DNA of 64,000 nucleotides, taken from NCBI GenBank assembly GCA_963696385.1, contig CAVOKF010000007.1, positions 128,001 through 192,000 of the forward strand. Direction: 5' to 3'. Below are positions 42,601-63,996 of the stretch, in pieces. Within the stretch, counting starts at the first letter, position 1; each line of letters opens with the position of its first letter. The notes under the pieces were generated by a model that saw only the letters and a program-made list of their open reading frames with translations, was not told the DNA's origin and searched no databases. Both the position numbers and the translations under genes were made by a program. This DNA comes from an uncultured delta proteobacterium. GTDB taxonomy: Bacteria > Myxococcota_A > Polyangia > Polyangiales > Polyangiaceae.

Positions 42601-42810
42601 CGCCCGGACGGCGGGAGCGAGGGGCTCGCCTCCGCCGGCCCGGTCCGAGATCGCACCGAGAGCCGGCGCCGATGCGGATCGGTGCGCAGGAGGCCCTGCG
42701 CTGAGCATCAACGCGTCCGGCGAGGTGCGCACCGGCCGAGACGTTGCCGGCACGGTTGCGGGCGTGGCGGCGAGCGACGTCAGCGCGGAATGGGCGAGCG
42801 CCGCGGCCAT
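39664..42810 (-). CDS. DUF4157 (eCIS core) effector with C-terminal DNA/RNA non-specific (His-Me) endonuclease domain
   Basis: GEPL..VRARLE..FG, ARAFAHG..IFLG, LLAHEVAHVIQQ; C-terminal YVLGHLLN..LHGPG....NLTPL...GN; AT-rich 3' end. Confidence 0.88.
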   Translation of the reverse strand: MAAALAHSALTSLAATPATVPATSRPVRTSPDALMLSAGPPAHRSASAPALGAISDRAGGGEPLAPAVRARLEATFGVTLGDVRVSSDAKAHKAATAVGARAFAHGRHIFLGPGESPSDVALLAHEVAHVIQQRGAVHAVQRLSRDAADHYEREARQAAAAALQGGPFTVCQRTTDVGIQRFGKDDALDWIANKANDVPGFRMLTVVLGKNPINLRQVDRSAANVLRAVIELLPGGALITQALDAYGILDKVGTWISSQIDSLGLSWSAIKKALSDFIESLHLSDVFNMEGVWNRAVAIFTTPIDQIIAFGKGLVDGILHFVKDAILQPLAELASKSAGWDLLCAVLGKNPITGEAVPRNAETLIGGFMKMIGQEEIWQNIQKGHAVARAWAWFQTALNNLLGFVRQVPTLFLQALKSLEIADLVLVPRAFAKVGAVFGGFAARFITWAGGTIWNLLEIIFDVVAPAVMPYLKKAGGALHTILQNPIAFAGHLVAAAKLGFQQFAANFGTHLKTSLVGWLTGALSGAGIYIPQALSLAEIGKFVLSVLGITWTKIRAMIVKALGPTGETIMKAMETGFDVVVALVKGGPAAAWEVIKDKLGDLKDMVLSAILGFVEEKVVKAAVTKLLSLLSPVGAFIQAIIGIYNTVMFFVERLKQIAAVVAAFIDSIAAIASGAIGAAAARVESTLSGLLTLVISFLARIAGLGGVTDFIVAKIKALQERVEKALETAVQWIVGKANAFFLNLGHSTAGAVAAWWRARKSLTIDDESHELSVAGAPGSAQIMMASKAPGSLRAMLEGQPSSPAIVRALQVVTELEKLIRSQASKSLKDDEAATIKAAIQTKLEVLTGILPSIFGGLLESTAPQFGGLTSHGYATSMLVLRLTKKGPPGSTPSVSNENFDILNLRRNKDGSYYVLGHLLNRLLHGPGNTWNNLTPLSRSGNAQHLIQVEQLVKRKVLDEKKVIRYEVVPRYDRARTAAYAKNSLNPGIRKKADIVDKIIDQEAFVPSAMVCSADEIDTKTGALTPLFSKKAVNNQIDEALETYEVKK

Positions 42811-47565: not shown

Positions 47566-47616
47566 ATGATGTCTTCCTTTCGAGCGTAATTAAAATGGCA
47601 AATATCGTGCGATCGC

Positions 47617-48834
47617 CTAGGGCGCGATGTTCACGGTGATGGACACCGGAGGATCGCCTGCGTCGTCCGTGATCTGCACGTTCAACGTGCTTGGTCCGGC
47701 GCCTGACTGCGCCTGCACGCGGACCGCTTGGGTTAGGGGACCATAGCCCGATCCGCTTGCGGGGAGATTGGCTGAAGTGACCGACTGCGGAGCCAGGGCG
47801 TAGCTCGTTGCGCCTGAAGCGGCCGCGGGAAAAGTGTAGTTACTGCTGGCAAGCACGAATGTGGTCGTGTAGGTCGCCGCCTTGAAGAACGTCACGTCGA
47901 GAGTGACAATCGTTCCGCCTGCAGCCGCAGATATATCGACGGCGCCGGTCGAATCGACCTGGGTGGCGAGTGATACGACGGCGACGGCCAGGGGGGGGAT
48001 GGATTGGCCAATGGTGATCGGCAGTATCAAAGGGGGGGCCGGCGTGACCGTCCCGCCCGGTGTCACCTCTTGAGCATTCAGCGTGAGTGTGGCTGTACCG
48101 CCCGACACGTTCGGGGGAGTCACCGTCACCGTCAGAGATGTCATCGATCCGGAAGTGTTTGACCCGGGAGCGGGCACGGCAAAAGTTAACTGGCTTCCGC
48201 CCGAGACCTGCTGGCCGCCTTGGATGGCGGCGGTCCATGCGGAGTTCGACATCGTCGCGGTCACCAGGTAATTCCCCGCCTCAAACACGTGAGCCACCAT
48301 TGTGAATCCGAACGCGTAGGGAACCGCGGGATGAATGAGATCGTCCGATGGAGTCGCAGCGGGCGGCCGGACGGAATAACTCAGGTTCAGGGAGCCGCTC
48401 GGATAGACTACTTGGGGGGCGACCGTGAGAAGCCAGACCGCACTGCTTCCAGCCGCATTCGTAATCGTCATCAGCATGGCCGTTCCGGTCGCGGAGAGCT
48501 GCACGCTGGGCGGAAACTGCGGGATCGCGAAGATCAACGTCCCAGGTCCGCTGCCCGGCTCGAAGACACCGACCTGGTAGCCGCCGATGGTCACAGTGTT
48601 GGCGGACGCCGGTGTGGTGAAATTCGCACCGGTCACCGTCACCGTGTCGAGAATATTAAGCAATCCGGTAGGCGTCACGGAATTGATGACGAGCTGACTC
48701 GCCGCGGCTGCGCTCTGACCCGCAAGCAGGGTCACCCTTCGGTCGAGGTCATTGATCGCCGCTACCAGCCTGTCGATGTACGACGCCTGAATGAGATCTC
48801 CGGGGTTCACATTCGCAATGTTGTAGGTTCCCAT
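47617..48834 (-). CDS. IPT/TIG (Ig-like) domain protein
   Basis: VNPGDLIQA + short coiled coil; INSVTP...TVTVTGANF....NTVTIGG. Confidence 0.75.
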   Translation of the reverse strand: MGTYNIANVNPGDLIQASYIDRLVAAINDLDRRVTLLAGQSAAAASQLVINSVTPTGLLNILDTVTVTGANFTTPASANTVTIGGYQVGVFEPGSGPGTLIFAIPQFPPSVQLSATGTAMLMTITNAAGSSAVWLLTVAPQVVYPSGSLNLSYSVRPPAATPSDDLIHPAVPYAFGFTMVAHVFEAGNYLVTATMSNSAWTAAIQGGQQVSGGSQLTFAVPAPGSNTSGSMTSLTVTVTPPNVSGGTATLTLNAQEVTPGGTVTPAPPLILPITIGQSIPPLAVAVVSLATQVDSTGAVDISAAAGGTIVTLDVTFFKAATYTTTFVLASSNYTFPAAASGATSYALAPQSVTSANLPASGSGYGPLTQAVRVQAQSGAGPSTLNVQITDDAGDPPVSITVNIAP

Positions 48835-48872
48835 GCGCGGCTCTCCTCATCGACTGACTGGACTCGTCGTTC

Positions 48873-51155
48873 TCATTCGAAATGAAAGGCCAAAAATCGC
48901 CCCGCCGCGGGCACCCACCCGGGGTCGCGATCGAGGCCGGCGAGGCGCACCTCGATCGGCAGATCGGCTAGCGCCATGTGGACATCCACGTGCGTGTCCG
49001 TCGTGCGGACCCGTGCCGGGAGGCGCAAGAGCAGGCGGGCGCTCGCATCCGGGTCGCTCGCGCCGAGGGCCCTGTGCACGCGCGCTCGAAGAAAGCCCGC
49101 GAGGGAGTCCAACCAGCCGGTCCCTTCGGGGCTCCCGGCCCCTGCCTCCAACACGTCCGCTGCGCCGTAAGGCGCGAGCTCGCGTTCCCGCTGAGCGGCG
49201 ATGTCCCCTTCGCGCGCCACATCGACCGCGATGAACCCCACGGGATGCAGGATCCGCAAGCGCCCGTCCGTCGCATGCCACGTCCACCCATGGCGGTCCG
49301 GAAAGGGCTTGAGCCATGCCGGGTTCACCCGCCACGCATCGGGCCACGCTTCCCTTGCCTCTTGGGGACCGGCCAGCTCGTCGAGCAGGCCCCAGATGGC
49401 GTCGGCGGCATCGGGCTCGTCACCGAGGAGCCTACGCGCAAGCTCTGCGAGGACCCTCCAGGGCGACGCGCTCAAGGTGCGAGACCGCGGACGGGTGAAG
49501 TCGCCGTAGATCTCGAGGACCAGCAGCGCGTTGATCAGAAAGAGGACGCCGCCATGACGTGTCGAGATCCAGCGATCGAGCGCCGGGACGCCCCCGGCGT
49601 GCTCTCGCGCGGCGGGCGCCGTCTGGACCCCGGCGGAAGGGGACGGGGCGCCGACCGGCGGCACGCCGGGGCGAACGGCCGGCGGCGCGATCGATCGATC
49701 CACGTCCGCCGGGGTCGCCGTGCGATGGAGCGTCGCCGGGACGTCGCGTCCGCGATCCGAAGGCCAAGCGACTGGATGTTGAGCCTCCGCCGGATCGCCT
49801 CGAGCGTCCCGGACTTGCGTCACGGGCCCCGGGGTCGTGACCGTCGTGGGGGATTCCGCGGCGGAGGCCGCCGCCGGGGCGCCTGCGGCGTGCCCAGCCT
49901 CGGTAGGCCCACCCTCGGTCGGTCCGACCTCGGTCGCGAGAACCGCCGTTCGGGTGGCCGCGGAAGATGGATCCGTCCGTTCTGGACTGCGCGACGGGGG
50001 CGCAGCCGGATCGCGGGCCACGTGGACGACGGGCACGTCGGAGGCGGCGTCGTTCGAATCACGCCCGTCTTGTGCCGCTTGCGAAGGGTGTCGGACTGGC
50101 TGGGCCGTTCCCTGGGTCCGTGCGACGGCCCCATGTGCCAGGTCACCGATTGGGATCGACGGCTCCATCCGGTCTCGCGCGTGCGAAGCTCTCTTCGCCG
50201 ATGCAGCGACGGATGACCCGGCGACGGCGTCTTCGCCTCGCCCGACGGATCCCGCGGGGCCATCGAGCTCCGTCCGGACCGCCGAAAGCGCTTCGGGTCC
50301 GCTCGCGGCCCATGCCTGGATCGCCGCGACGACGTCGCGATCGCGCGCAACCGAGGGGGCCCGGGCGAGAGCGAGGCTCAGGACGACCAGCGCGCGCGCC
50401 GGCGCGTGCAGGTCCGCGCTTGCGGCCTCGGGCGCCCAGCGGGCCCATTTCGCTCGCGCCGCCGATCGATTCGCGTCTCTCTCGGCGCGCGATGGCGTCG
50501 TCTCGAGGGGCGCCGCGCCGGTTGACTCGCGTGGGGCCAGATGGATCCCGAACGACTCCGCGACGCTCGCGACGAGATCGCGCGCCTCTACCTCGTCGAG
50601 CGCGGCGGCAAACGCCACAAGCGCGCCGCGATCGGCGAGCCGACGCGCTGCCGCGGGCACGTAGCGCGGCTCGAGTCTCCATTGCGCGGGCGCGACACGG
50701 ATCGTGGCCGCGGGCCATCGGACCAGGTGGCGCCACCACCAGAGGGCGCCGATCTCCCCTCGCGTCCAGTCCCTTGCCAGGCAAGCGAGAAGCTCGGATC
50801 GGTCGTGAAAGATCACGGCCGTCGCGCCCGCGGGCACGCTCCCCTCGAGGGGCCGCGCCGCGGACCGCGCCTCGCGCTCGAGCGCCCGCGCAAGCGCCGC
50901 TTGCCACGCGCTCGACACCCCGGCCTGCCGGTCGAGCCGAAGCGCCTCCGGCAGCGGGTCACGCATCGATCGGATGCAAAGGATGGCGGTGGGCGGTAGA
51001 CCCGCGACGTGAAGCGCCTCACCGGACAGCACGCTCTCGAGCCGCGCCCGCGCGGTGTTCGCGTCGAGGCGACTCGCCGATCGGACGCGCAGCCGCCCGA
51101 CGATCGATCGATCGTCGAGTGCCCCCACGGGGGTGGCTGCTGACCTGCCGTTCAT
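48873..51155 (-). CDS. Putative eCIS tape-measure-like protein
   Basis: Long Ala/Pro-rich middle; C-terminal GGVLFL...HVDVHM....IEVRLAGLDRDPGWVP..GR...FHFE; operon position. Confidence 0.65.
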   Translation of the reverse strand: MNGRSAATPVGALDDRSIVGRLRVRSASRLDANTARARLESVLSGEALHVAGLPPTAILCIRSMRDPLPEALRLDRQAGVSSAWQAALARALEREARSAARPLEGSVPAGATAVIFHDRSELLACLARDWTRGEIGALWWWRHLVRWPAATIRVAPAQWRLEPRYVPAAARRLADRGALVAFAAALDEVEARDLVASVAESFGIHLAPRESTGAAPLETTPSRAERDANRSAARAKWARWAPEAASADLHAPARALVVLSLALARAPSVARDRDVVAAIQAWAASGPEALSAVRTELDGPAGSVGRGEDAVAGSSVAASAKRASHARDRMEPSIPIGDLAHGAVARTQGTAQPVRHPSQAAQDGRDSNDAASDVPVVHVARDPAAPPSRSPERTDPSSAATRTAVLATEVGPTEGGPTEAGHAAGAPAAASAAESPTTVTTPGPVTQVRDARGDPAEAQHPVAWPSDRGRDVPATLHRTATPADVDRSIAPPAVRPGVPPVGAPSPSAGVQTAPAAREHAGGVPALDRWISTRHGGVLFLINALLVLEIYGDFTRPRSRTLSASPWRVLAELARRLLGDEPDAADAIWGLLDELAGPQEAREAWPDAWRVNPAWLKPFPDRHGWTWHATDGRLRILHPVGFIAVDVAREGDIAAQRERELAPYGAADVLEAGAGSPEGTGWLDSLAGFLRARVHRALGASDPDASARLLLRLPARVRTTDTHVDVHMALADLPIEVRLAGLDRDPGWVPAAGRFLAFHFE

Positions 51156-51165
51156 GCCATTTCTC

Positions 51166-52503
51166 TCATGACCACGCCGCGTAATCGAAATACGCGGCGT
51201 TGAAGTGCGATTCGCCGAAGTAGGGCATCTGCCCCGTGACGAAGAAGAGAACCGACTGCACCGGCGCAGGCGGGGTCGCCGCCGGGGGCGACGCCACGAG
51301 CGGGGCGGACGCCTGCATGTTCTGGCGGGTCTGAAAGAGCCAGATCATCTCGCCGCTCGACAGGTCAATCAGCGGATAGTCGAACGAGGCGCGGATCATC
51401 GCCTGGGCACGCGCCCCCTCGATGGCGATCGGGGCCTGGGTCATCGTGCCCGCTGCATTCACCACGCACCCCTGCCGAACCGGCAGCCCCTGGAAGAACG
51501 TGGCCAGGACGAATCCGGCCGGGAACGCCGACGAATAGATCGGCAAAAGGCCCAGAGGGGGAAGGTACTGAAACACGCTGGTCGCCACGACCGTGCCCGG
51601 CGTTGCCGCAATCAGCGACTGGACGTGATCCTGAAACTGCAAGAGGACAGCTTCGCCGAGAGCCGTGTAGCGGTCGCCCATGGGAAGCGTCGTGTCGTCG
51701 GTGTTGTCGGCCCGACCGACGCGGCGGCGCGCCGACCACATGTCCACGAAGGTGATGCCCGTGCCCGGGCTCCAGCCGACGACGGCCAGAGGCACTTGCG
51801 CATCGGTCAGGGTCGTCGGGCGGAGGCTCTCGATCAGGCCTTGCGGCGCGGGCGTGCCCTGCGGAAGCGACCCGCCAAACGGATTGACGAGCGGATCGGA
51901 GCCGAACCCGAAACATTGGGCGGCGACGAGGTTGCGCAGTTGCGCCGTATTGGCCAGATCGCTCGCGGAGACCGGGAGCTGCAAGAGCGCGAACTGGACG
52001 CCCTCGACGATGTATTTCGCGTTGCACTTGTCCGTCCCGTCCGAGAGCCCCAAAACCGGCGCCTGCCCGGTCGTCCCCGCGGCGGGGGCGATCGTCAGCA
52101 GATACACCCCGGCGGCCGTCAGGTAGGCGCCCGGCGCCGCCGGGGCGCATGGCGCAAACGGGGTCACGGTGGTTGCATTCGCGGCGGGGGCCGTTGGAGC
52201 GTAGAGGCCCACCACCGTGGTGTTGCCGAGCCGGATGGCGTCCCCGGCACGGTTGAAGGCCAGGCCGGCCCGCACCGTGACGGTGGGGACTGCGGAAGAG
52301 GGCGCAGGCAGCACCGCGGAGACCTCCAGGCCCTGGACCACTCCATCGCCGACGGCCCGTCCGAGGCGCGCGTCCGCGCGACGGTTCGCGGCTTGCTCTG
52401 TGGTCAGATCCTCGCCGCTCAGCAGCCGCCCGTTGAAGAATTTGATCGACTTGAGCGCCGTATCGAAGACGGGCGTCGTCACCGGGGTCACGGTCGCGGT
52501 CAT
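51166..52503 (-). CDS. eCIS baseplate/fibre-associated protein
   Basis: N-terminal FFNGRLLSGEDLTTEQ...GVVQGLEV...VTVRAGLA. Confidence 0.7.
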   Translation of the reverse strand: MTATVTPVTTPVFDTALKSIKFFNGRLLSGEDLTTEQAANRRADARLGRAVGDGVVQGLEVSAVLPAPSSAVPTVTVRAGLAFNRAGDAIRLGNTTVVGLYAPTAPAANATTVTPFAPCAPAAPGAYLTAAGVYLLTIAPAAGTTGQAPVLGLSDGTDKCNAKYIVEGVQFALLQLPVSASDLANTAQLRNLVAAQCFGFGSDPLVNPFGGSLPQGTPAPQGLIESLRPTTLTDAQVPLAVVGWSPGTGITFVDMWSARRRVGRADNTDDTTLPMGDRYTALGEAVLLQFQDHVQSLIAATPGTVVATSVFQYLPPLGLLPIYSSAFPAGFVLATFFQGLPVRQGCVVNAAGTMTQAPIAIEGARAQAMIRASFDYPLIDLSSGEMIWLFQTRQNMQASAPLVASPPAATPPAPVQSVLFFVTGQMPYFGESHFNAAYFDYAAWS

Positions 52504-52521
52504 GGCCTTGCCTCCCCTGCC

Positions 52522-53883
52522 TCAGGACCCGACCAGGGCGTTGATTTCAATCAAGAGGTTGAGGCCCGCGACGTTCGTCGGCGTCGGCGCGGCGCCATTC
52601 ACGAAGACCGCGATCGTGCAACCGGGGGGCTGGGTCGAAATCGAAGTCACGACCAGCGTGACCACGTGCGGAAGGGCCACCGGGGAGGTGGCCACGAAGG
52701 GAAGAGCCTTGATGATGTATTGCGTTCCGATCGCCGGATGGTCCGGAAAGCTGACATAAACCTCGCCCGTGGCACCCCACCACGCCTGAAGGCCCGACCC
52801 GGCGGCGGCGGCCGGCGAACCCGATTGGATCGGCACGAGTCCGGCGGCCACGAGTCGGTAGCGCGCGAAGCTCGCCAGGCTCGCAATCCACGCCTCCTTG
52901 AGCATGTCGAGCGGAAGCAGAAACGGCCGTGTGGTGTCGACTCGAACCGCGGTGGTGGAGTCGAGCGCCCAGAGGCCGGTCAACGATTGCGCCACCGGCA
53001 GATCGATCGTCGCAAGCAGAATGCCCGTTTCCCGGGGTACGGCGTCGGCGGAGGATGGGCCGGCGAGCAAGCTGCGCAGGGTCGTCGCGTAAAGCTGCAA
53101 GGCGGCGCGATAGACCTCCGGCGCTGTGGCGGTGCCGATCGTGATCCCGGAAGGCGGCGCCGGCGGGAGCGAGAGCGGGACTGCGGGGGGCGAAGAGGAG
53201 ACACCGAACGACGCCTTCATGGCTGCGATGACGGCGGCGGGTGAGCTGCCCGACCCCACGGCCGCGGGCACCTGGGCGAGCCACCGGATGACCGCCCACA
53301 TGCCCGGCTCCTCGGTCGGGGCGGGGGGCGTGAGACACAAATCGAGGCTGAAGCCGTCGGTCACCCGCGACGGGGCCACGGCCTCGTTCGCCGTGCGGCA
53401 CGGCTCGCCCGGGATTGGGACCTGGTCGGTCAGGCAGGGTTTGTAACGAAGGACTGTGTAGAGGGTGACTGTGCCCCGCCCCGGGGCCGCGGGCGGGGAT
53501 GCGGACGTCGACACGGGAGGCGATCCGGGTGGCGATCCGACGCGGAGGCTCGTCGCGACGGTCGTCTGGTTGTTCTTGACCCAGTCGTCCAGTACGGCGC
53601 ACTGGGCGCTCGGCACGCGGACGATCTGCCCGTGCGGAGTCAGCGCGACCCCGGGCTGCACGACGAGCTCGGTCGTTCCGCTCGCAGGCTGCACGGTCAC
53701 GTCGAGCCCGCGCACCGTCCCGGCGCCGATGAGGTCGCGCGCCGCCCATTGGTCGCGCGCCGCGTGATAGACGAATTCTTGCTGGAAGTCGTCCACCCCG
53801 AGAACCATCCCGAGCGTGTAGTTAACGTGCTTGCTCGGGTTGAGGGGCGCGGGGGTCGGAGTGACTGTCGAGAAGGCCGTCAT
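52522..53883 (-). CDS. eCIS baseplate/fibre-associated protein (N-terminus paralogous to the neighbour)
   Basis: HVNYTLGMVLGVDDFQQE...GTVRGLDV...VQPGVALTPHGQ. Confidence 0.7.
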   Translation of the reverse strand: MTAFSTVTPTPAPLNPSKHVNYTLGMVLGVDDFQQEFVYHAARDQWAARDLIGAGTVRGLDVTVQPASGTTELVVQPGVALTPHGQIVRVPSAQCAVLDDWVKNNQTTVATSLRVGSPPGSPPVSTSASPPAAPGRGTVTLYTVLRYKPCLTDQVPIPGEPCRTANEAVAPSRVTDGFSLDLCLTPPAPTEEPGMWAVIRWLAQVPAAVGSGSSPAAVIAAMKASFGVSSSPPAVPLSLPPAPPSGITIGTATAPEVYRAALQLYATTLRSLLAGPSSADAVPRETGILLATIDLPVAQSLTGLWALDSTTAVRVDTTRPFLLPLDMLKEAWIASLASFARYRLVAAGLVPIQSGSPAAAAGSGLQAWWGATGEVYVSFPDHPAIGTQYIIKALPFVATSPVALPHVVTLVVTSISTQPPGCTIAVFVNGAAPTPTNVAGLNLLIEINALVGS

Positions 53884-53892
53884 CGTCGTCTC

Positions 53893-56658
53893 CTAAGCGT
53901 TCGATCCCGGACCGAGAGGATTGCGACCGGCGACGTCGCGGTGGGTGGCGTCTTGAGGGAATCCCGGCGCCAGGTGGCCTTCGAGCAGGTAGCCGTAACC
54001 GAGCACCATGGACGGGGCGAGATCGGGCATGCGGCTGCCCTGCTGGAGGAGCGTGTCGTAGCCGAGACGGGCCTGACCGATGCTGAACATGGCCCAGTAG
54101 AAGCTCACGTCGAAGACCGTGTGCGCCGGCTTCTCGAGCTTCACCAGCCGCTTGATCAGATCCAGCTGCTGCTTCTGTGCCGGAGTGTCCGACGACATGC
54201 CGGCAGGCAGTGGAATGAGCACCCGGAAGCGGTGCGCGTTCTGTGCGATCGGAAGGACGATGCCCTCGAACTGAAACCAGTCGACGAGCGGCGGGCCGTC
54301 CGGCGGGAGCGTTGTGGGCAGCGAGACGGCGGCCAGCGAAACGTACGACGTTCCGTACGTCGTGTTGAAGTTGGCGAGGCTCGGATACCGCCGCTGCAGA
54401 AAGAGCGTCCAGCGCGCCTGGTCGGTCGTCGTCGCCGAGGGCACGAACCCGAGCGTGGCGGTCGCGAAGGCGGTCCACGCTGCCGCCGTGGCGCTGTCGG
54501 TGGGCGCCGTGACGGGAAAGGTCGTCTGCACGGCCAGACCCGCCGCCGTGGCCGCCGCGCTCCAGAGCGTGACGAGCGCATCGCCACCGAGCGACGGATT
54601 CCACGTGTTCGTGGGCGGCGCCGGGCCGAAGATCGAAGGCGTCGACGGCTCGGCCGCGACCGAGGGCGGCGTGACGCGCGTCGTGAACTGCTCGACGATG
54701 CGCGTACCCGACGGGCGGGGGTTGTCGGTATTCGTGAAGATCGCGTCGCAGGGATTTTGCGATAGCACCAGATCGAGCGCCATCTGGATGCCGCGCACCG
54801 TGCCGCGCCACTGAAAGAAGTCCATCGCGTGCCGGATGAAGAGCCGCTGCCGTACGTTGTCCCACGTGGGGTCCATCGAGACGCCGAACCATGCGGCGAG
54901 CCACGCGAGCGTGTCGTATGGCGCGATGCGCGGGTCGAAGAGCTCCTGGACGGCGGCCACGCGATCTTCAATCGGCGTGAGCAGGCCCTCGAAGTTCGCC
55001 ATGAACCGATCGAGCAGACCGACCGTGTCGTTGTCGGTGTACGCCGCCGGCATGTATTGCTTGACATACGAAAAGCGCGGGTAATAGGCGCGCATCGCGC
55101 GGATGCGCGGAGACGACCGCGCGTTGCCGCTCAGCGTGATCTGGAGCTGCAGGTACCGCCCCCTGGCTTGCTGAAACAGAAGCTCGTACGACGAGAGGCC
55201 CGCCGACAGCACGGTGAACGGCAGCTCGATGCCTTCGGTGCGCAGGTACAGCCGCGGGGGTTCGGGCAGAAAAGGGCTTTCGGATAGCGTTTGCGGGTCG
55301 TCGGCCGCGCGGCTCTGAATCTGGATGCTCGTGCCGAGAGGCATGGCCGCATCCAGAATCAGGCGATGCCACACGCACCCGGGAAGACCTGCGTCGAACA
55401 CCGGTGTGGTGATCGTGCCGCTCGTCACGTATTGCGGCCGCTTCTGCATCACGAGCGGAATAAACCAATCGGTAAAGTCGTAATACGGCGTCCCGTTTGC
55501 GTAGAAGATCGCCCGGCCCCCAAAGCGCCGCATCGGGTAGTAGTCGGGAAGCGGCTGAAGCTCGAGGCCGCCGCCCGACGTCGACGAGGCCGCGAAGGCC
55601 AAGCTCTGGGCGCCGACTGCGAGCGCGACGAGCACCTGGCCGGAGAGCGGATCGGAGCTGCCGGGTGTGGGGACGAAGGCGAGGTCCTGGCCGGTGAAGG
55701 TCATCGTCACGCCCTGGGGCAAGAGCGGGGCGATCGCGTCCACCGGAAACGGGGCGTCGATCCGCACGCTGCCGCGATAGCGTTCGATGCATGACGTCGC
55801 GGCGCCGCCGAGATCGAGGATCAGCACGGTGCCGTCCGGCAGGGCCTCGATCGCGATGGGGTTCGTCGCAGACAGCGGCGACCCGCCGTCTTTCACTTGG
55901 CCCGGCGGCGAATCGAGATCGGGCTTGCCTTGCGGCGGGCTACCCGCGAGCGGCTGGAACGAATCCGTTCGCCCCCGGCTCGCCGGCGCCGGGTCGTCGC
56001 CACGGCACACGGCGAAGTTTGCGTCGAGCGACCAGTATCGCCTGTTGACCGGGTCCAGGATGAAGACCCCGCCACCGGGCGCCGCCGCCATGTCGAAGGG
56101 CGCGAAGGGCACGTCCTCGGGCCACAGCAGAATGCGGGGTTCGCCGCCCCGATACAGGTCGAAGAGGATGAGCGCGGCGGGATCCGTGCCGCCGACGACG
56201 AGGTAATGACGCCTCGTGACGGCGAGCCCGGACAGCATGCGGGGCACCGGAGCCGCCGGAGCGACCAGGTCCCCAAAGCCGCTTGGGCGTGCGGCGGGAG
56301 CTTCCGGCTTGCCGGGGGGCCAGAACGTCGTCAGCGTCTGGTCGCCCGACGACAGGACGAGGATCTGGGTGTTCGTGGGGTCGATGAAATAGAAGTTTCC
56401 GAACCAATCGGCCGCCGCGCCTCGACGGTTGGACGGCAAGAGCCCCGGATCGTCAGGATTCGGGGGGAACGCGTACAGCTGCGGCCAGAGGGTCAACTGG
56501 TGGCGCTTCGGGTCCCAGTAGAAGTCGGTGGCGACCGGAGGCGAGGGCGGTGACCCCAGCGCGTTCCACGCATTCGACAGCGGCGAGCCGCCCTCCAGGC
56601 AGCTCGCCCAGTCGTTCTCCCCCAAGAGGAGCTGATACTGCGTGCCGTTCGCGTCCAC
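53893..56658 (-). CDS. Phage tail (P2 gpI-like wedge) protein with N-terminal beta-propeller-like region
   Basis: YMPAAY, LDRFMANFE, FDP..AP...LAWLAAWFG, RGTVRGI, LEKPAHT. Confidence 0.85.
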   Translation of the reverse strand: MDANGTQYQLLLGENDWASCLEGGSPLSNAWNALGSPPSPPVATDFYWDPKRHQLTLWPQLYAFPPNPDDPGLLPSNRRGAAADWFGNFYFIDPTNTQILVLSSGDQTLTTFWPPGKPEAPAARPSGFGDLVAPAAPVPRMLSGLAVTRRHYLVVGGTDPAALILFDLYRGGEPRILLWPEDVPFAPFDMAAAPGGGVFILDPVNRRYWSLDANFAVCRGDDPAPASRGRTDSFQPLAGSPPQGKPDLDSPPGQVKDGGSPLSATNPIAIEALPDGTVLILDLGGAATSCIERYRGSVRIDAPFPVDAIAPLLPQGVTMTFTGQDLAFVPTPGSSDPLSGQVLVALAVGAQSLAFAASSTSGGGLELQPLPDYYPMRRFGGRAIFYANGTPYYDFTDWFIPLVMQKRPQYVTSGTITTPVFDAGLPGCVWHRLILDAAMPLGTSIQIQSRAADDPQTLSESPFLPEPPRLYLRTEGIELPFTVLSAGLSSYELLFQQARGRYLQLQITLSGNARSSPRIRAMRAYYPRFSYVKQYMPAAYTDNDTVGLLDRFMANFEGLLTPIEDRVAAVQELFDPRIAPYDTLAWLAAWFGVSMDPTWDNVRQRLFIRHAMDFFQWRGTVRGIQMALDLVLSQNPCDAIFTNTDNPRPSGTRIVEQFTTRVTPPSVAAEPSTPSIFGPAPPTNTWNPSLGGDALVTLWSAAATAAGLAVQTTFPVTAPTDSATAAAWTAFATATLGFVPSATTTDQARWTLFLQRRYPSLANFNTTYGTSYVSLAAVSLPTTLPPDGPPLVDWFQFEGIVLPIAQNAHRFRVLIPLPAGMSSDTPAQKQQLDLIKRLVKLEKPAHTVFDVSFYWAMFSIGQARLGYDTLLQQGSRMPDLAPSMVLGYGYLLEGHLAPGFPQDATHRDVAGRNPLGPGSNA

Positions 56659-56659
56659 G

Positions 56660-58974
56660 TCAGCAGTCCTTCGGAACGACCGGTACGGCGACGACGAGCG
56701 GGGCGGTCGGCACGGTCCCCGTCGTCACGGGCTGTCCCTGCAACGAGGCAATGGAGATCGGGATCCCCTGTGCCCACGGAGAGGCCTGCGAGACAAGGCA
56801 GAATCCAGGCCCGTCATCGGAACCTGGGTGACGGAGTTCCCGTCGGAGCCGGCGAGCAGCACGCTGTTGACGAGCAGCACGCCGCTCACGCGGCTGGCCA
56901 CGGCCGAGGCCTCGAGAGCCACGACGGCCTTTCCGAGCGGCCAGCCGTTGGTCACCTGAAGCATGGACGGGGACGCCGTCTGGTCGATCGGCACGGTGTC
57001 CGGCAGAAGCGATGTGCCGGGCGGGGGCAGGGGAGAGAAAAACTGGACGAGCGCCGCTTTCACGGCCGCAATCACGTCGGTGAGACTCTGGCCGGGCACG
57101 ACGGCGATGCCAACCGAGACCCAGATGTTGACGTAGGTCGGACCCGAGATGAAGACCTCGGTCGTGACCAGCCGGCGCGGATCGAGCCACGCGGCGATCG
57201 CGCTGAGAAAGCTCTGCGACGGCATGGGCGCGTTGGGGTTGACCGGGTCGTAGCTGGGCAGGACCATCAAGGTCACGACGCCGGGCGCGTCGCCGGGTGC
57301 GTTGGGCGACAGCGAGGGGTCGAACGCGGCGAGCACGTCGATTCGCCCGATCGACACCCCCGGCGTTCTCAGCGCAATGCACTGGAAGTCGGCCTGGGTG
57401 ACGAGCCGGTCGCGGTGCTGCAGATAGCGCGTGATCTGCTTGACGCCGTCGTCGGCTGTCTCGGCGTTCGCGCCTCCCCATGTGCTCACCGGGTTTGCCA
57501 CCGTCACGCCGGCCGGCAGCGCGGGGCCCGTGCTGATCGATCCGGCAGCCACGTTGCCGGCGGCCCCGACCGAGTAGTCGTAGTTGGCCGAGATCGTCGC
57601 GTTCAGGGGCGGCCTCGCCCCGTGGCTACCGTCGCCGAAGGTGATCGTTCCGGCCTCCGGATCCAGCAGGAACACGTCGGTCGGCAGGTTCTGGGGCGTC
57701 TGGGTGCCCGGCGGAAGGCTGGGGTCGACGACCGGAACCTCCGGGCCGGCCGCCATGAGATCGTCGATCGCGGCCCACGTTTCGGATGGGCCCGTCGGGG
57801 GGGTGACGGTGACCTGCACCGACCCCGCGATCACCGGCGGGTTCTTCAGCGTCACGACCTGGCTGGGCATGCCGGTGCCGCCGGGCAGCACCTCCCCCGT
57901 GACGTGCGTCAGCTGCGTCACCCTGGCCGCGTTCGCGCCCATCCACAGGATGTCGACGTCCGTCGGCGAGATCACGCTGACCCGTATCCAGGTGATGAGC
58001 CGAGCCGCGAGCGTCGTGTCGTCGAGGGCCGGCGGATATTGCGCGACTCCGGCCTCCAGTGGATCGAGGTCGGTCCAGGTGTAGAGCTGATCGGCCGACG
58101 GCAGGACCATCTCGATGACGCCGGGCGCGGAGAGCACGTCGCCGTCGGGTGCCACGCTGACCTGGCGATAGGAAGCCGTCCCCGTGGTCACGGGGAGTCC
58201 GCCGCTGAAGGCTGGGAAGTAGAACCCGAGCACCGAGTTCAGATCCGACGCGCCGACGGGGTTCGGTGTCAGATCCACGGCCGCCGAGCTCGGCGCGAGG
58301 ATCCCGGGAACCATCCCCAGGCTCAAGGTCCGACCCGCGATCTGGCTCCGGATGCCGTCGATGTTGCCGGCGTCCACCGCGCGGGCGAAGATCGCGATCC
58401 AGACCGTTCCGTCGACGGTGTCGGCGTTGAGATCGACGCTGGCCGCGCCCCCAGGCCCCAGCGTAGAAACCTCGTAGAGAGCCAGAGTCTGCGGAGGGGC
58501 CATCGTCGGAGCCGTGTACGAGGCGTAGAGCTGGCTGTAGTAGTCCTGGATGGTCGTATCCGTCGCCGTGTAGGGCTGCTTGAAGTAGACGCCCGTCTCG
58601 ATGGGCAGGACGTTGACCCCCTCTGCGGTGCGAAACGGCACCTGGCCGGCGTCCACCTCCATGTCCTGGGTCAGGGGGAAGACGACGGGCGGACCGTTCG
58701 CGTTCGTGAACGCGACCAGGCCTTGCGCGGCCGCCGCCGGCGACAAAGGCATCCCGAGCAGCTGCAAAAACTTGATCTGGTTGCGGTCGGGGATCTGATT
58801 GCAGCGATACAGAAGACTCTCGGTCAGAAACGAAAGGACGCCGACGATCGTGATCCCCGGATCGCTCTGGTTGTAGTTGGTCCACTCCGGCGTGTGCACG
58901 GAGATGCGCGCCACGGCCTCGTTGAAGAGGTCCTGGTACTTGCGCGAATCGAGCGGCGGAGCGGTCAGCGGCAT
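56660..58974 (-). CDS. Baseplate J/gp6-like assembly protein (two apparent +1 frameshifts near the 3' end)
   Basis: P.LD.R.YQDL..E, PEWTNYNQSDPGIT, ITFGDG.HGARPP, GAAGNV, RLVT..DF, RRLVTTE; corrected end GLDLPCLAGLSVGTGDPISIASLQG...PVVPKDC*. Confidence 0.88.
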
Positions 58975-58981
58975 CGGGCCC

Positions 58982-59371
58982 TCAGGAAAGCGTGACGCTC
59001 AAGCCGATGGTCTGCTGGGTCTGCGTGGCCACCAGCGTGTACGTGACGGTCGCGATGGCGCTCTGCAGATCGTTCGGATCCTGGTTGACGCTCACCGACT
59101 GCACGGCGATGCGCGGCTCCCACTGCGTGAGCGCCTTGGTGATGAGGCTCTGGATGAGCGTGCGCGTGGCGGCCGTGTTCGGCTCGAAGAGGATCGACCG
59201 CAGTCCGCCGCCGAAGGCGGGCAGCATGACCCGCTCGCCCGGTTCGGTCATCAGGATGACCATGATGGCCTCGCGGATGTTCTTTTCTCCCGCCGACCAT
59301 GCGATCTGCCCGTTGGGGCCGACGCGGAACGGGAACGACACGCCGCGACCGAGGACGGTTCCTGCATCCAT
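58982..59371 (-). CDS. GPW/gp25 family baseplate protein
   Basis: LGRGVSFPF, IREAI..IL.TEPGERVM.P.FG, WEPRI. Confidence 0.95.
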   Translation of the reverse strand: MDAGTVLGRGVSFPFRVGPNGQIAWSAGEKNIREAIMVILMTEPGERVMLPAFGGGLRSILFEPNTAATRTLIQSLITKALTQWEPRIAVQSVSVNQDPNDLQSAIATVTYTLVATQTQQTIGLSVTLS

Positions 59372-59374
59372 GGC

Positions 59375-61090
59375 TCATGCCTCGTCCGAATCCGACCCGC
59401 TCGCGGCGGAGACGACCCCGCTCGGCACCGGAAGACAGATTTTCAAGAACGGAAGCCACCAGAAGACGAAGTTGAGCGCAATGGCGATCATGAACATCAG
59501 GATGAATGAGATGATCACCAGGATCTGAAACGAGAAGCAGCAGATCTCGCCCATGCCGAGGGCCCCCGCGGGGCCGACTTGTCCGTTCACGACGTTCTTC
59601 AGATTGGACGCCTGGTTGACTTGCTGCAAAAACTGGGGGCTCATCAGAAATCCGATGCCCTTCGGGAATTTGCGAAGCGCCGCGGGGCTGGTGTCAAACG
59701 GCATGGCGATCCGAATCTGGCGCGCCGGCGCGTCGGAATCGAAGAAGGGCGCGATCATGAACCGCTGGCTCCGATCGCTGAGGATCGATGGGTAGAGCGC
59801 GGCGAACTGCTCGCGCTTGAGGGCGCAGCGCTGAAAGACGCAGCGCACGACGTACAGCGCGCCGGCGTCGAGCTTGGGCACGACCTGCGTCGCCGCCACG
59901 GCGTCGGGAGGATCGAAGGGCTGATTTTCGTCGACGATGGCGGCGGCAAGCAACGCGCTGAGCAAATAGCCGGTGGCAGGCGCACTGGCGCCGGGCGCAG
60001 GATCAGGCAGGATCGCCTGCGCCGTGCTTCGGTCGCTGTAGTAGAGATTGAACGCGGGGGTCGTGAGCTGCGACGCAGGCGATCCGGGCGCATCGATCGT
60101 GCTTTGGGCGGCCGATGCCGCCCGAAGGGCCGCTGCCCATGTCACTCCCGTCGTCGTGTCCGCGACCGCCGCCACAAGCTGCGTGTAGAGCTGCGTCTGG
60201 GGTGCCCCGGTCGGAGCTGCCGCAGCCGGATTCATAATGGCCGCATAGACGTCGGGTACGTACTTCTGCAGAATCTCGGCCAGGTCGAGCATCAAGAACG
60301 CGGAGGCGTCGATCAAAAGGGCCATGGCCGGATCGGGCGACGGCGGCGGCGATCCGATCGAGGCATTGGCGATGGCCCCGTACGGATCGACCACCCGGGT
60401 GCTCGCCTCGAGCACGCGCGGGTCCACGCCACCCGCGGGCGGCGACGACGGCGCGGAGGTCGTCGGTGCCGCGGCGAGCGTGTCGCGGCTCGACGTGGGA
60501 ATGAGCCCCGCGTGCAGCCGTCGCGCGGGGGTTGAGCCCGGAACGAAGACCGGAAAAAGCGGGATCAGCTCCTCGTTCGGCGCGAGCTGGGGCCGTCTGG
60601 GATGCTGCGTCACCAGTTGCCACGCGAACTGCGTCGGGTCCGACGGATACGCGGGATTGGGGACCCACGCCATCTCGCGCCCCTGGGGGTCGAGCTTGCG
60701 AAGCACGAAGAAGGTCCGCTCCTGGTTGGCGACCTTGAGCGCGTGGTCCGGAAGGCCAATCTGCTGGCAGACGAAGCTCGCGGCCACCATGTAGAAACGC
60801 CCGTGGACCGGCTGAAAGAGCTTCAGCGGGAGCGGAGGACTCCCTTGGGAAGGACTGTAAGGCGGGGAGCCGAGCCGCGGGGTTCCCGCCGGAGGCACCC
60901 GCGCGCTCTCCCATTGGGCCACGGGCAGGGTGGGCGGGGTTTGCGCGAGCGCCTGGGTGAGCTCGGTCACGAACTGATCGGACTTGAACTCGAGCAGCGC
61001 CGGGCGGCGCATGGTCACCGAGTCGACCGGCCCCGACGGCCAGAGCGGAGCCGGCGCAACCCACTCGAGCTTGTGCGGCTGCGTGTTCAT
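59375..61090 (-). CDS. Hypothetical eCIS protein with C-terminal hydrophobic segment
   Basis: LKLFQPVHGRFY, FFDSDAPARQIRI, ICCFSFQILVIISFILMFMIAIALNFVFWWLPF; 4-bp overlap with the spike gene. Confidence 0.8.
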   Translation of the reverse strand: MNTQPHKLEWVAPAPLWPSGPVDSVTMRRPALLEFKSDQFVTELTQALAQTPPTLPVAQWESARVPPAGTPRLGSPPYSPSQGSPPLPLKLFQPVHGRFYMVAASFVCQQIGLPDHALKVANQERTFFVLRKLDPQGREMAWVPNPAYPSDPTQFAWQLVTQHPRRPQLAPNEELIPLFPVFVPGSTPARRLHAGLIPTSSRDTLAAAPTTSAPSSPPAGGVDPRVLEASTRVVDPYGAIANASIGSPPPSPDPAMALLIDASAFLMLDLAEILQKYVPDVYAAIMNPAAAAPTGAPQTQLYTQLVAAVADTTTGVTWAAALRAASAAQSTIDAPGSPASQLTTPAFNLYYSDRSTAQAILPDPAPGASAPATGYLLSALLAAAIVDENQPFDPPDAVAATQVVPKLDAGALYVVRCVFQRCALKREQFAALYPSILSDRSQRFMIAPFFDSDAPARQIRIAMPFDTSPAALRKFPKGIGFLMSPQFLQQVNQASNLKNVVNGQVGPAGALGMGEICCFSFQILVIISFILMFMIAIALNFVFWWLPFLKICLPVPSGVVSAASGSDSDEA

Positions 61091-61806
61091 AGGAGGTTTC
61101 CCAACCCCGGCGTGTACGACCCGCCGACCACCGACGGCGTGATGAGCGTGACGTTGCCGTTGACCGCGCCGCTGAACGTCGACATCGCAGCGTTGTGGCT
61201 AATCGCTGTGGCCGAAAGCTCGATTTGGCTCGCCTGGATCGTGACGGTGCCGCTCGAGGTGATCGTGACGCCCGACGGACCCGTCTCGACCGTGTTGCCG
61301 TTGCTGTCTTCGATCGTGATGGTTGCGGCCCCGTCTTGCAGCGTGATCTGCTGACCGCCCGGCGTCTGGACGATCAGCGCCTCGCTGCCGGTTGTGTCGT
61401 CGAGCGTGATCTTCACGCCGTTTCGGGAGCAGAAAAGCTTGGTGTTGTTGCTCCCGGCCGAGTCCATCGACGCCGGCGGGGCGTCCTGCCCGTTCCAGAG
61501 GCCTCCGATCACGTAGGGCCTGCGCGGGTCGCCGGCTTCGAACGCCACGAGCACTTCATCGTTCACGTCCGGGACGAAGAAGCTGCCGCGGTTGTTTCCG
61601 CCCATCATCGTGGCCAGACGGGCCCAGGTCTCGTAGCGCGCACCGCTCGAATCGGGCGACCACGGCAGCGCGACCTTCACGCGCGCCTGCCCGTCGGGAT
61701 CCACAATGTGGGTCACCTGCGCCGGGAACACGCCGAAAAACCGTCCCCCGAGGCCGTGTTCCGAGCGATCCCCCAGGATCGTTTCGACCAGCGACTTCTC
61801 GATCAT
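61087..61806 (-). CDS. Baseplate assembly protein V / gp5-like spike
   Basis: DPDGQARVKV..PW, WARL, GSFFVPDVNDEVLVAFE.GD...PYVIG.LWN; beta-helix repeats. Confidence 0.93.
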   Translation of the reverse strand: MIEKSLVETILGDRSEHGLGGRFFGVFPAQVTHIVDPDGQARVKVALPWSPDSSGARYETWARLATMMGGNNRGSFFVPDVNDEVLVAFEAGDPRRPYVIGGLWNGQDAPPASMDSAGSNNTKLFCSRNGVKITLDDTTGSEALIVQTPGGQQITLQDGAATITIEDSNGNTVETGPSGVTITSSGTVTIQASQIELSATAISHNAAMSTFSGAVNGNVTLITPSVVGGSYTPGLGNLL

Positions 61807-61828
61807 CGCGAGGCGCCTTTCGCCGTCT

Positions 61829-62899
61829 TCATGACGAACCCAACCCGGGTCGCTCGGCACAAAACTCCGTGCGCAGGCCCTTGACACCGTCGAACATGTG
61901 GGTGACCTCCGTCACGTAATACGTGCCCTCGAAGAGCGGCCCGAGGCCGGTGAGATCCACGTAGGCTCCGACGCGCAGACCAGGGTCGGTGTCGGCCACG
62001 CCGCGCACGCTCAAGAACGTCCTCGCGAAGGCCCGGAAATGGGCCTCGGCACGCGCCTGCGCTTCGGCCTGCGTCCAGGGCACCGTGTGCACGATCGTGT
62101 CGTTTCGAGTGCCGAAGCTGCTCTGGACCACGCTGGCTCCGCTGGTATTGCCGCCGAGCTCGCTCCCGAGCACCGAATCGGTCGCCTGGGACTGGATGGC
62201 CTGCTTGGCCGACACGTCCCATCCGCTGACGGTGAGTGCCGTTCGTTGGTTGGCCAGATCGGCGCTGACGACCACTTCCCGGAGCTCGTGCTTATAGCCC
62301 AGCGTGAGCGAGGCCCCCCGCCTGTGCTCGCGCGCCTGCGCGTGAAGTGTCGTTCCGTCCATCCAGACCTCGGCATCGACGGCCCGGGCGCGGTCGCGAA
62401 TCAGCGCCAGATCGCTCTGGTTGACCTGCGCGATGACGCGGTACTGCGGCCCCTGCACGTCGATGCTCGGGGTGAGGCCGTGCGCGCTCGCGATCGTGCT
62501 GAACAGGTCCGCGTCCGTGATGTTCTCGAACGTTTGCGTCCGGCGCGTCATGCGAAGCTCCTGGAACCGATCCTCGGCCAGAACGCCGATCTCGATCTGG
62601 GTGTCCTCGGGGAAGCGTCCCTCGAGCGCCGAGATCGTCCCTTCGAACATGGATTGACCGGCCAGCGAAATTTGAAGCGACTTGCCGAAGTCCAGAAGCG
62701 ACCGATCGAAGTAGAGAAACCCCGTGCCGCCCTGACCCAGGGGGCCCCAGTTGCCGACGACGAGCTCGCACCGGTAAAGGCCCAGGATCGTCTCGGTGAT
62801 GCTCATACCCAGAAGCCCCTGCGTGAGCGAGGGCTGGTTTTGCCCTGCGATCGAGACGGTCGGCCGCAGGGCGCTGATGCTGGTGGAGTCGGTGGTCAT
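61829..62899 (-). CDS. Phage late control gene D / VgrG-hub-like protein
   Basis: FEG.I.ALE, AEDR...LRM.RR, Q.NQSDL, LRVG..V...GLG..FEG.YYVT.V.H. Confidence 0.92.
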   Translation of the reverse strand: MTTDSTSISALRPTVSIAGQNQPSLTQGLLGMSITETILGLYRCELVVGNWGPLGQGGTGFLYFDRSLLDFGKSLQISLAGQSMFEGTISALEGRFPEDTQIEIGVLAEDRFQELRMTRRTQTFENITDADLFSTIASAHGLTPSIDVQGPQYRVIAQVNQSDLALIRDRARAVDAEVWMDGTTLHAQAREHRRGASLTLGYKHELREVVVSADLANQRTALTVSGWDVSAKQAIQSQATDSVLGSELGGNTSGASVVQSSFGTRNDTIVHTVPWTQAEAQARAEAHFRAFARTFLSVRGVADTDPGLRVGAYVDLTGLGPLFEGTYYVTEVTHMFDGVKGLRTEFCAERPGLGSS

Positions 62900-62922
62900 G
62901 GGATCTTCGCTTTCGCCCGCGA

Positions 62923-63099
62923 TCAGTGCGCCCAGACGCGCAAGCCGCGCTCGCGCAGGTGGCGCTGGATCCGAAAGACGTCCCGGGCGCCGACCGAGCT
63001 CGGCGGATCGCTCGGTTTCGCTTGGGGCCCCGACGCCTTGCCCGCGGCCGCCTGGTCCGGCCCCGGCACGACCTCGATTTCGTGGATGATGACCGGCAT
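62923..63099 (-). CDS. Small hypothetical eCIS protein, 58 aa (absent from the ORF track)
   Basis: MPVIIHEIEVVP...RHLRERGLRVWAH fills the gap between tube and hub genes. Confidence 0.7.
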   Translation of the reverse strand: MPVIIHEIEVVPGPDQAAAGKASGPQAKPSDPPSSVGARDVFRIQRHLRERGLRVWAH

Positions 63100-63105
63100 C
63101 GTCTC

Positions 63106-63996
63106 TTACCCGACGGTGAAGGCCGTGCTCGCGCTCGCGGACACGCTCCCGCTGATGCCCCCCCCGACGGTCCCGCCGACAGTTGCGCCGACCGTGCCGC
63201 TGGCGTCGACGCTCGCCGCCGCGGAGACGCTCCCGCCGACGCCCCCGCCCAGCACGCCGTTCACCCCGACGGCGACCGCGCCCAGCGCACCGGTGCTTGC
63301 GCCCACGCTGATGCCGCCGGTCAAATCGGCGCTCATGTCGATGAGCTGCCCGGTCGCCAGCATGCGCGGGTTGTCGATCCCGTTGGCCGCGGCGATCGAT
63401 TGCCAGTCGCTCCCACGGCCGGCAGCCGTCGCCATCGATTGAATCGAAGCGCCCTGCGGGCTCGCCGTGAGCGGGGCGTTGCCCGGCGCCGTCGGATCGC
63501 TCTGCTGGCCGGTCGTGATGAATTGAATGGTTTGGTCGACGAGCGAAAAGGACACGCTCGCACGCTGGGGTTTGCCGTCGGGCGAGAAGTACTCGATGTT
63601 CTCTTCGATCGAATCCATGATCCCTTGAAATACGAAGGTGCCCCACTGGAATCGGACAAAAAGGGGGCTGAAGCTCCCCGGCGTAGCGCCGGCCGTCTGG
63701 ACGGGAGCGGGAATCATGAAGTTGACCACGGTCTTCGTGAGCGTTCGCACGTCGGTGGTCCCCGTGAGACTGGTCCCGGCGTCGAACCAGATCTGCCCCG
63801 ACATCTTCGTCGTTCCCGACCCGATGAACTGAAGCGCCGCCGGGCCGCGCTGGTCGCCTGCACCCTTCGGAGGCTGGATCTGATTCGCATAACTGACCTT
63901 GAGCGACTCGGGGTTGAACTGAACGGGGACTCGGGCCGCCAGCTCCTTTTGGAACGCCGAGTTCATCTGGACGAAATAGGCCTTCTCCAGGTTCAT
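63106..63996 (-). CDS. CIS tube-initiator-type protein with LysM-like domain and Gly/Ala/Ser/Val-rich tail
   Basis: VQFNPESL, FQWG.F.F.G...S..E...YFSPDG.P.RA.V, WQSIAAANGIDNPR. Confidence 0.9.
   Translation of the reverse strand: MNLEKAYFVQMNSAFQKELAARVPVQFNPESLKVSYANQIQPPKGAGDQRGPAALQFIGSGTTKMSGQIWFDAGTSLTGTTDVRTLTKTVVNFMIPAPVQTAGATPGSFSPLFVRFQWGTFVFQGIMDSIEENIEYFSPDGKPQRASVSFSLVDQTIQFITTGQQSDPTAPGNAPLTASPQGASIQSMATAAGRGSDWQSIAAANGIDNPRMLATGQLIDMSADLTGGISVGASTGALGAVAVGVNGVLGGGVGGSVSAAASVDASGTVGATVGGTVGGGISGSVSASASTAFTVG

Follow-up and report, generated by a model that had tools for sequence, protein, structure and literature searches.

Why do several structural proteins of one extracellular contractile injection system (eCIS), although unrelated to one another, share a repeated Ser-Pro-Pro (SPP) motif? 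The question is raised by an operon in the Polyangiaceae genome GCA_963696385.1, within the window analyzed here, a 64,000-nucleotide stretch of contig CAVOKF010000007.1 (positions 128,001-192,000); the operon runs on the minus strand from ~35.5 kb to past the window's right end. The favored answer, to which a probability of roughly 0.7 is assigned, is that SPP is an acceptor tag for cytoplasmic serine O-glycosylation of the particle by an enzyme encoded in the same locus. The sequence-only reading of the window had put about 13 SPP motifs in four eCIS proteins, and exactly 13 were found, every motif that it had named among them (lengths in amino acids, aa):

51166..52503, minus strand: second CIS13-like protein, 445 aa; one SPP (residue 405), in the ASPP at 51283-51291
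52522..53883, minus strand: eBAP3/TssK-like baseplate-anchored fiber or shoulder protein, 453 aa (weak CIS13_fam match); four SPP (residues 117, 121, 129, and 231)
53491..53535, minus strand: loop GSPPGSPP...ASPP (Ser117, Ser121, and Ser129) of the shoulder protein; homologous loop tagged in many loci
53185..53193, minus strand: SPP at Ser231 of the shoulder protein; in homologues, the same loop has up to seven tandem SPP
53893..56658, minus strand: Tail_P2_I baseplate adaptor (PF09684), 921 aa; four SPP (residues 36, 39, 240, and 250) and two SPL
56545-56553, 56536-56544, 55933-55941, and 55903-55911, minus strand: SPP sites of the Tail_P2_I adaptor
59375..61090, minus strand: conserved protein of unknown function, 571 aa, with a C-terminal hydrophobic helix; four SPP (residues 75, 84, 216, and 247)
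60860-60868, 60833-60841, 60437-60445, and 60344-60352, minus strand: SPP sites of the 571 aa protein

For the 2,390 residues of the four proteins, the genome rate predicts 0.64 motifs rather than 13; shuffling of whole proteins gives 1.87 and local shuffling within 20-residue windows 3.07, and none of 1000 shuffles reached 13, so that the enrichment over genome background proposed as a test was confirmed. The tetrapeptide GSPP occurs seven times, as opposed to 0.10, 0.13, and 0.29 by the same three measures. The accompanying caveat, that a proline-rich proteome of high GC content could explain the motif, did not hold: none of APP (2), GPP (1), TPP (4), and PP (30) in the four proteins exceeds its own shuffles, indicating that proline richness is not the cause. 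Serine fills the first position in 13 of 30 X-P-P triplets, compared with 8% in 173 other proline-rich proteins (p 2e-7). Among 5,000 called genes of the genome (from a simple codon-score finder, ~76% of the genome being covered), only three of these four proteins carry four SPP, and the best six-gene block elsewhere holds 5.

The same motif recurs in homologous loci well beyond this lineage. In the best 80 of 264 genome loci, which come mainly from Acidobacteriota and also from Chloroflexota, Verrucomicrobiota, Nitrospirota, Planctomycetota, Myxococcota, and Betaproteobacteria, homologues of the shoulder protein contain 207 SPP versus 18 expected and the long sheath contains 70 versus 11. The motifs often form tandem S-P-P-x arrays, with a maximum of seven in one loop. 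With a further 119 homologues containing 320 SPP (28.9 expected), the shoulder protein is the most consistently tagged family; 170 of the 272 SPP in its alignment fall at query residues 230-249. A Sorangium strain also encodes a homologue of this protein. Other heavily tagged proteins, namely both sheaths and a protein of ~300 aa, are encoded just past the window's right end; the latter family carries one of the heaviest loads of tags (99 SPP versus 10), with 100 SPP in 40 genomes and a C-terminus that often reads ...GSPP. One or more SPP are present in 60 of 120 listed Tail_P2_I homologues, frequently around residue 34. The suggestion that the four window proteins are tagged alike was thus only partly sustained: family totals in loci encoding the transferase described below show a strong excess for the shoulder protein (115 versus 9.7 expected) and an approximately twofold one for Tail_P2_I (21 versus 10.8), and none family-wide for the 571 aa (16 versus 13.4) and 445 aa (7 versus 4.3) proteins. 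The single ASPP of the 445 aa protein is possibly a chance occurrence. In the 571 aa family, the GSPP pair appears in the closest homologues only, in indel-rich alignment columns; it is a recent gain, and the four SPP of this protein were acquired in this lineage.

Homologue alignment placed the SPP motifs in variable loops and C-termini, as their occurrence in linker-like stretches had suggested. An AlphaFold2 model of the shoulder protein (106 sequences; mean predicted local distance difference test score, pLDDT, 88.6) has its SPP sites in two coils with pLDDT 61-70, and its nearest folds are the baseplate of a thylakoid-anchored contractile injection system (tCIS; 7b5h), TssK, and phage receptor-binding protein shoulders, the matches being of middling strength (E 2e-4 to 5e-3, Z about 7). 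In this model, built for this protein alone, the SPP sites appear to be exposed and in flexible coil. The motif is confined to structural genes: it is not enriched in flanking host proteins (12 versus 20 expected) or in the DUF4157 cargo family (8 versus 6.5), and the transferases' own SPP amount to 3 versus 2.6 and 7 versus 2.7, most transferases not being enriched.

These distributions bear on the idea that Pro/Ser-rich linkers grow neutrally by slippage in GC-rich DNA and that SPP has no function. Some arrays are indeed tandem duplications (up to seven per loop), and the serine codons of SPP lean to TCG; however, the same lean is shared by any serine before proline, and SPP density does not rise with GC content (rho -0.27). 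Local shuffles that keep composition fall far short of the observed counts, APP and GPP are not raised, and the SPP excess is absent from flanking genes and from loci lacking the transferase, which together make neutral drift a very improbable explanation. All six serine codons are used within SPP (AGY, 20-33%), and the enrichment holds across phyla at 45-73% GC. A compositional or GC artefact was ruled out by the shuffles, codon use, and GC independence. A reading-frame count for a DNA-level motif gave no information, since off-frame matches arise from ordinary codon patterns.

If SPP is a glycosylation tag, its writer should be sought among the transferases encoded in the particle's own gene cluster:

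42823..45180, minus strand: multi-domain glycosyltransferase, 785 aa, consisting of GT2N, a second glycosyltransferase family 2 (GT2) domain, and a third domain without a Pfam match
44491..45180, minus strand: GT2N (PF00535), invariant GT-A domain and candidate tag-reading enzyme
37631..39616, minus strand: accessory transferase, 661 aa, with a C-terminal FUT8/NodZ-like domain (PF19745/PF05830 below cutoff)

The window's glycosyltransferase was matched in 41 of 50 locus-bearing genomes, in 39 of them on the same contig as the tail gene, ~8-27 kb away. For comparison between loci, 47 of the 50 genomes were extended (G209, G210, and G237 were not), together with G668, G298, and G054; genes were called with hidden Markov models, and a locus was retained if 15 or more of the 16 core families were present, giving 43 including the window's. 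The contigs of G226, G298, and G054 stop short of the transferase position, for which reason these genomes were excluded, and two of the 43 were dropped on that ground. The 36 loci with a transferase cassette contain 426 SPP versus 99 expected (median ratio, 4.5), and the five without one contain 13 versus 11, in line with the earlier expectation that SPP would be limited to transferase-containing loci. These five form three lineages, each of which lies below its nearest enzyme-positive relatives in SPP, so the result carries the weight of three contrasts rather than that of its nominal p of ~1e-5. A C-terminal S-P-(P/L/I) is found on the ~300 aa protein in 19 of 36 enzyme-positive and none of five enzyme-negative loci, and TPP and APP do not differ between the two groups. 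Transferases are the only families present in at least eight positive loci and in none of four clustered negative ones, besides a small gene confined to 13 loci. Wider sampling for enzyme-less loci yielded little (2 of 401 genomes in the window's own phylum, 3 of 201 around G215, and 1 of 301 around G247), and a plasmid search for additional loci gave no match. At least three more enzyme-positive loci came from a metagenome scan, their shoulder proteins having 1, 4, and 4 SPP; among the matches listed, no locus could be scored as negative. Overall, serines on exposed structural parts co-vary with the enzyme, with exposure modelled for one protein and with three exceptions.

The sequence-only reading had offered either glycosylation or proline-directed phosphorylation of the serines. 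Enrichment, variable loops, and dependence on the glycosyltransferase speak for the former, with serine modification as an inference from them. Proline-directed Ser/Thr phosphorylation found no support: no kinase family recurs among the families found in at least eight of the 36 enzyme-positive loci, and TP and TPP do not differ between the two groups, although host kinases may act in trans.

GT2N, a 230-residue GT-A domain found in 40 genomes, is the one constant module of the cassette and has an invariant HWDDDDW motif. Its partner domains vary (GT2, GT9, GT4, fucosyltransferase-like, and methyltransferase), an arrangement that would fit a fixed acceptor bearing a variable glycan. The FUT8/NodZ-like transferase, present in 4 of 36 enzyme-positive loci, is a candidate chain-extending enzyme judging from its domain match; neither window transferase has a transmembrane helix. 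Because GT2N adopts a generic GT-A fold and shares 15-23% identity with its nearest structures (polysaccharide and teichoic-acid enzymes), structure is neutral on peptide priming. In G223, G225, G231, and G249, the structural genes are preceded by the AAA and DUF4157 genes, yet the transferases still stand at the 3' end, indicating no fixed link between the transferase and the toxin module.

One Pyrinomonadaceae clade lacks GT2N, has a different cassette in the same slot, and keeps SPP; all seven such loci that were read are SPP-rich. Four of the seven were found later as tail-positive, GT2N-negative members of a 191-genome sample (tail gene in 24, GT2N in 28, both in 15), and three tail-positive genomes (G1171, G1237, and G1290) were left out of the comparison. 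The first domain of the replacement cassette matches PF01973 below the curated cut-off in 12 of 15 members, with a weak CstII match. According to the available text of one study, PF01973 is the central domain of the Maf flagellin Ser/Thr O-glycosyltransferases, which act in the cytoplasm and attach nonulosonic acids directly to exposed Ser/Thr of an appendage that assembles itself, and no sequon is stated there (10.1101/2020.06.03.131540). The same family also holds the MptE kinases. The Maf family (PF01973, Maf_flag10/DUF115) thus resembles the replacement domain of one eCIS clade and of phages, whereas the window's own enzyme is a GT2 and the PF01973 matches elsewhere (seven related loci and 18 phages) are below the cut-off; no Maf-like gene was detected among the called proteins of the window's own genome or locus.

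The replacement also lends something to the view that the particle is glycosylated by the transferases but that SPP serves for docking, or as a turn, close to the real acceptor, or that another enzyme, of the host or of unknown function, does the priming and leaves only extension to the locus transferases. GT2N resembles chain-building GT2 enzymes, SPP persists where an unrelated cassette takes its place, and all loci share several conserved genes of unknown function. Yet those same genes are present in enzyme-negative, SPP-poor loci, the tag follows both enzyme families into phages that share no eCIS genes, and serine is strongly favored over Thr, Ala, and Gly; this view is therefore considered unlikely.

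Tag and enzyme also travel together outside this eCIS subtype. Of 13 genomes with GT2N but without this tail gene, seven have it beside another eCIS type, including the DUF6519 type, and one beside a DUF6603 cluster; the DNA read from five GT2N genomes (G1239, G1201, G1125, G1132, and G1155) held no clear tagged system. In these other systems, whose proteins are non-homologous or distant to the window's, observed/expected SPP beside GT2N were 37/6.8, 19/3.1, 7/1.6, 6/1.6 (plus five more in a sheath added later), 2/0.7, and 2/0.1, but 3/2.1 and 1/2.1 in two further loci (G1252 and G1274), compared to a background of 9/8.0, with operon limits set after the first counts were seen. The DUF6603 cluster (G1188, L267-L269) encodes a 3,393 aa DUF6603 protein with 13 SPP and about ten proteins of 640-970 aa, nearly all SPP-bearing, with a GT2N cassette at its end; no eCIS core genes were found in the DNA read.

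GT2N was further found in 179 viral contigs, of which the best 80 were examined; it typically lies amid the head genes of HK97-like phages, as in L300-L379 (e.g., L333:8527-9711), where further transferases accompany it and capsids end ...TTSP(A). A C-terminal S-P extension of the capsid is present in 37 of 46 distinct GT2N phages, 35 of these 37 being from one clade, versus 1 of 71 phages without GT2N. A Maf-like domain, defined from the eCIS loci, stands behind the capsid gene in 18 phages without GT2N and covers most "negative" phages with tagged adaptors; in these phages (L403, L405, L444, and 15 others), it is a stand-alone gene near the capsid gene, and the head-tail adaptor has GSPP. 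With the wider motif S-P-(P/V/L/I), picked after the GT2N phages had been seen, head-tail adaptors are tagged in 21 of 30 GT2N, 10 of 13 Maf-like, and 3 of 38 phages with neither, and tail tubes in 11 of 19, 1 of 4, and 1 of 28, respectively. A further scan of 13 new adaptors found 10 tagged, mostly close kin.

This recurrence has to be set against the proposal that SPP binds a protein (an assembly factor, membrane anchor, chaperone, or proline-directed kinase or isomerase), that the transferases act on the cell surface for self-immunity or are themselves cargo, and that the correlation reflects shared ancestry. The GT9, GT4, and methyltransferase partners are typical of lipopolysaccharide/O-antigen synthesis, the transferase often follows directly behind the DUF4157 toxin and immunity genes, the independent contrasts are few, and an eCIS-type toxin with glycosyltransferase activity is described in the available text of PMC10598620. 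On the other hand, no recurring kinase or binding-domain family tracks SPP, and tandem arrays that vary in copy number on many different subunits fit a coat more readily than a site of fixed stoichiometry. The association is seen again in DUF6519-type eCIS, the DUF6603 cluster, and phages, and SPP is present in the adaptor of two isolated Maf-like phages whose closest surroundings in the tree are enzyme-less phages. A binding motif is accordingly regarded as a doubtful alternative, of much the same standing as docking or outside priming.

Several observations weigh against the glycosylation tag itself. Its support is computational throughout, the serine glycan being predicted from sequence. 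TPP is also raised in the 119 further shoulder-protein homologues (84 versus 29), and the 571 aa and 445 aa families fall outside the family-wide excess. The enzyme-negative eCIS represent only three independent lineages, so that the p values overstate the case; Minicystis (G238), a complete genome without the enzyme, keeps 6 SPP versus 2.7 expected, one at the usual loop, and a hub GSPP site also occurs in enzyme-negative loci (3 versus 0.2). Conversely, some enzyme carriers are poor in SPP: G228 has 4 versus 5.7, with SPL or SPI at the usual sites, and G1252 and G1274 have 3 and 1 versus 2.1 each, with SPL at 6 versus 3.3 and 10 versus 3.2. The GT2N phages lack a bulk SPP excess (60 versus 55), and their evidence is narrowed by the single capsid clade and the late choice of motif. 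No peptide-priming enzyme is among the nearest structures of GT2N, and two non-homologous enzymes would need to read the same tag.

Under the glycosylation reading, the sequon would be S-P-P, with L (and, in phages, also V or I) tolerated in third place and G, S, A, T, or D often preceding it. The operon's cytoplasmic glycosyltransferase would add the first sugar to the serine of exposed tags on many particle proteins during assembly, most likely through GT2N as the priming domain, and the partner domains (GT2, GT9, GT4, fucosyltransferase-like, and methyltransferases) would extend and cap a strain-specific glycan. New tags would appear and increase in number in any flexible loop or C-terminus where the surface can accommodate them, and this could explain why unrelated proteins converge on SPP. 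The resulting coat may protect or solubilize the released particle or tune its adhesion. Because SPP occurs on many unrelated shell proteins, mainly where the cluster encodes a sugar-adding enzyme, these injection machines are probably sugar-coated. The broader proposal stands at about even odds: a portable tag and writer, in which one SPP sequon served by two unrelated glycosyltransferase families (GT2 and Maf-like) has moved among HK97-like phages, at least three eCIS architectures, and a DUF6603 cluster, giving contractile injection particles a strain-variable coat, with GT2N as a new peptide-priming GT2 class and the tag as a minimal graftable sequon.

Ser-Pro(3-5) glycomodules of plant extensins use serine and prolines as a glycosylation signal, but their prolines must first be hydroxylated and the proteins pass through the secretory pathway; among the eCIS loci, no hydroxylase family is recurrent, and the likeness is one of analogy only. 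Glycosylation of mycobacteriophage virions (Che8, Corndog, and Myrna) was reportedly described by Freeman et al. 2023, with a C-terminal serine said to be the site. The available text of two papers describes mycobacteriophages that glycosylate the capsid and tail tube with their own transferases plus a methyltransferase (PMC12363180, PMC11600133). Multi-transferase cassettes with methyltransferases lie in the particle's gene cluster here as well; the host system here, however, is a bacterial eCIS, and the tags sit not only at C-termini but also in repeated internal S-P-P loops of many subunits. GT2N had no tblastn match at E 1e-8 in 50,697 GenBank phage records and only weak, generic PHROG matches, suggesting that it is not a close relative of the mycobacteriophage enzymes. 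PF00535 is depleted across eCIS overall (odds ratio, 0.28) in the consulted portion of the PMC8213781 supplement, which indicates that the transferase cassette is subtype-specific. The subtype resembles eBAP3/Tail_P2_I-type eCIS (Baseplate_J, Tail_P2_I, and then TssK-like shoulders, with DUF4157, Pvc16, CIS tube, and AAA ATPase), whose description has neither "glycosyl" nor "proline" in its main text (PMC12923769). Within the literature covered, which excluded subscription papers, no report was found of eCIS glycosylated by their own enzymes, of a phage Ser-Pro sequon of this kind, or of the DUF6603 link. The motif is strongly non-random and is best read as a glycosylation tag that one eCIS subtype has in common with phages.

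The remaining features of the operon are as follows:

35547..37634, minus strand: eCIS AAA ATPase (Afp15-like; family match), operon 3' end
39664..42810, minus strand: eCIS core (DUF4157) protein (family match) with a C-terminal endonuclease domain, putative cargo, no SPP
45196..51155, minus strand: three accessory/conserved genes of unknown function (789 aa; 405 aa, TIG domain; 760 aa)
56725..58974, minus strand: Baseplate J, no SPP
58982..59371, minus strand: gp25 baseplate wedge
61087..63996, minus strand: spike (VgrG-like, oligonucleotide/oligosaccharide-binding fold), hub, and CIS tube genes

All 16 core families are present (among them sheath, tube, spike/hub, gp25, Baseplate J, AAA ATPase, Pvc16, and DUF4157), with the sheaths, tubes, and Pvc16 just outside the window, where the operon continues through tube, sheaths, Pvc16, and the ~300 aa tagged protein. 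A Tail_P2_I adaptor is followed by a TssK-like shoulder protein, as recognized by PF09684 and fold matches of middling strength; by its gene content, the locus is an intact Tail_P2_I-type eCIS. Its closest relative among the best-listed loci is in a Polyangiaceae genome of the same genus. The 3' end of Baseplate J (56725-56830) seems frameshifted, and short-read contigs from three soil runs differ there by single-base gaps, which makes it an assembly error in an intact gene. The long sheath gene (contig ~192460-195230) was called as two open reading frames (316 and 605 aa) meeting near a C-rich run, probably another assembly indel. The ~300 aa protein (contig 198992-199870, plus strand) is encoded on the opposite strand, adjoins Pvc16, has 2 SPP, and is without a Pfam match. 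The 571 aa gene, kept in nearly all loci between spike and gp25, had no match in Pfam, NCBIfam, or PHROG; with its hydrophobic helix at residues 521-539, the protein is a candidate membrane anchor of the baseplate. The 789 aa accessory protein (45196-47565) has an N-terminal signal-like stretch and a Cys-rich C-terminal region with a hydrophobic tail, which we take to resemble myxobacterial sorting signals. A transposase-like pair on the plus strand (window 33256-35010; genome 32933-33298), judged by sequence only, flanks the operon's 3' end; the long minus-strand frame at 33256-34761, without a family match, is probably a shadow open reading frame.

If the glycosylation reading is correct, eCIS particles of abundant soil bacteria would bear a variable sugar coat that is missing from current structures and catalogues, and a large unannotated GT2 family of bacteria and phages would gain a concrete substrate. 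Virion glycosylation, now with a sequon that can be predicted, would extend past the mycobacteriophages, and site-directed glycosylation would gain a soluble enzyme of the cytoplasm whose tag is three residues long.

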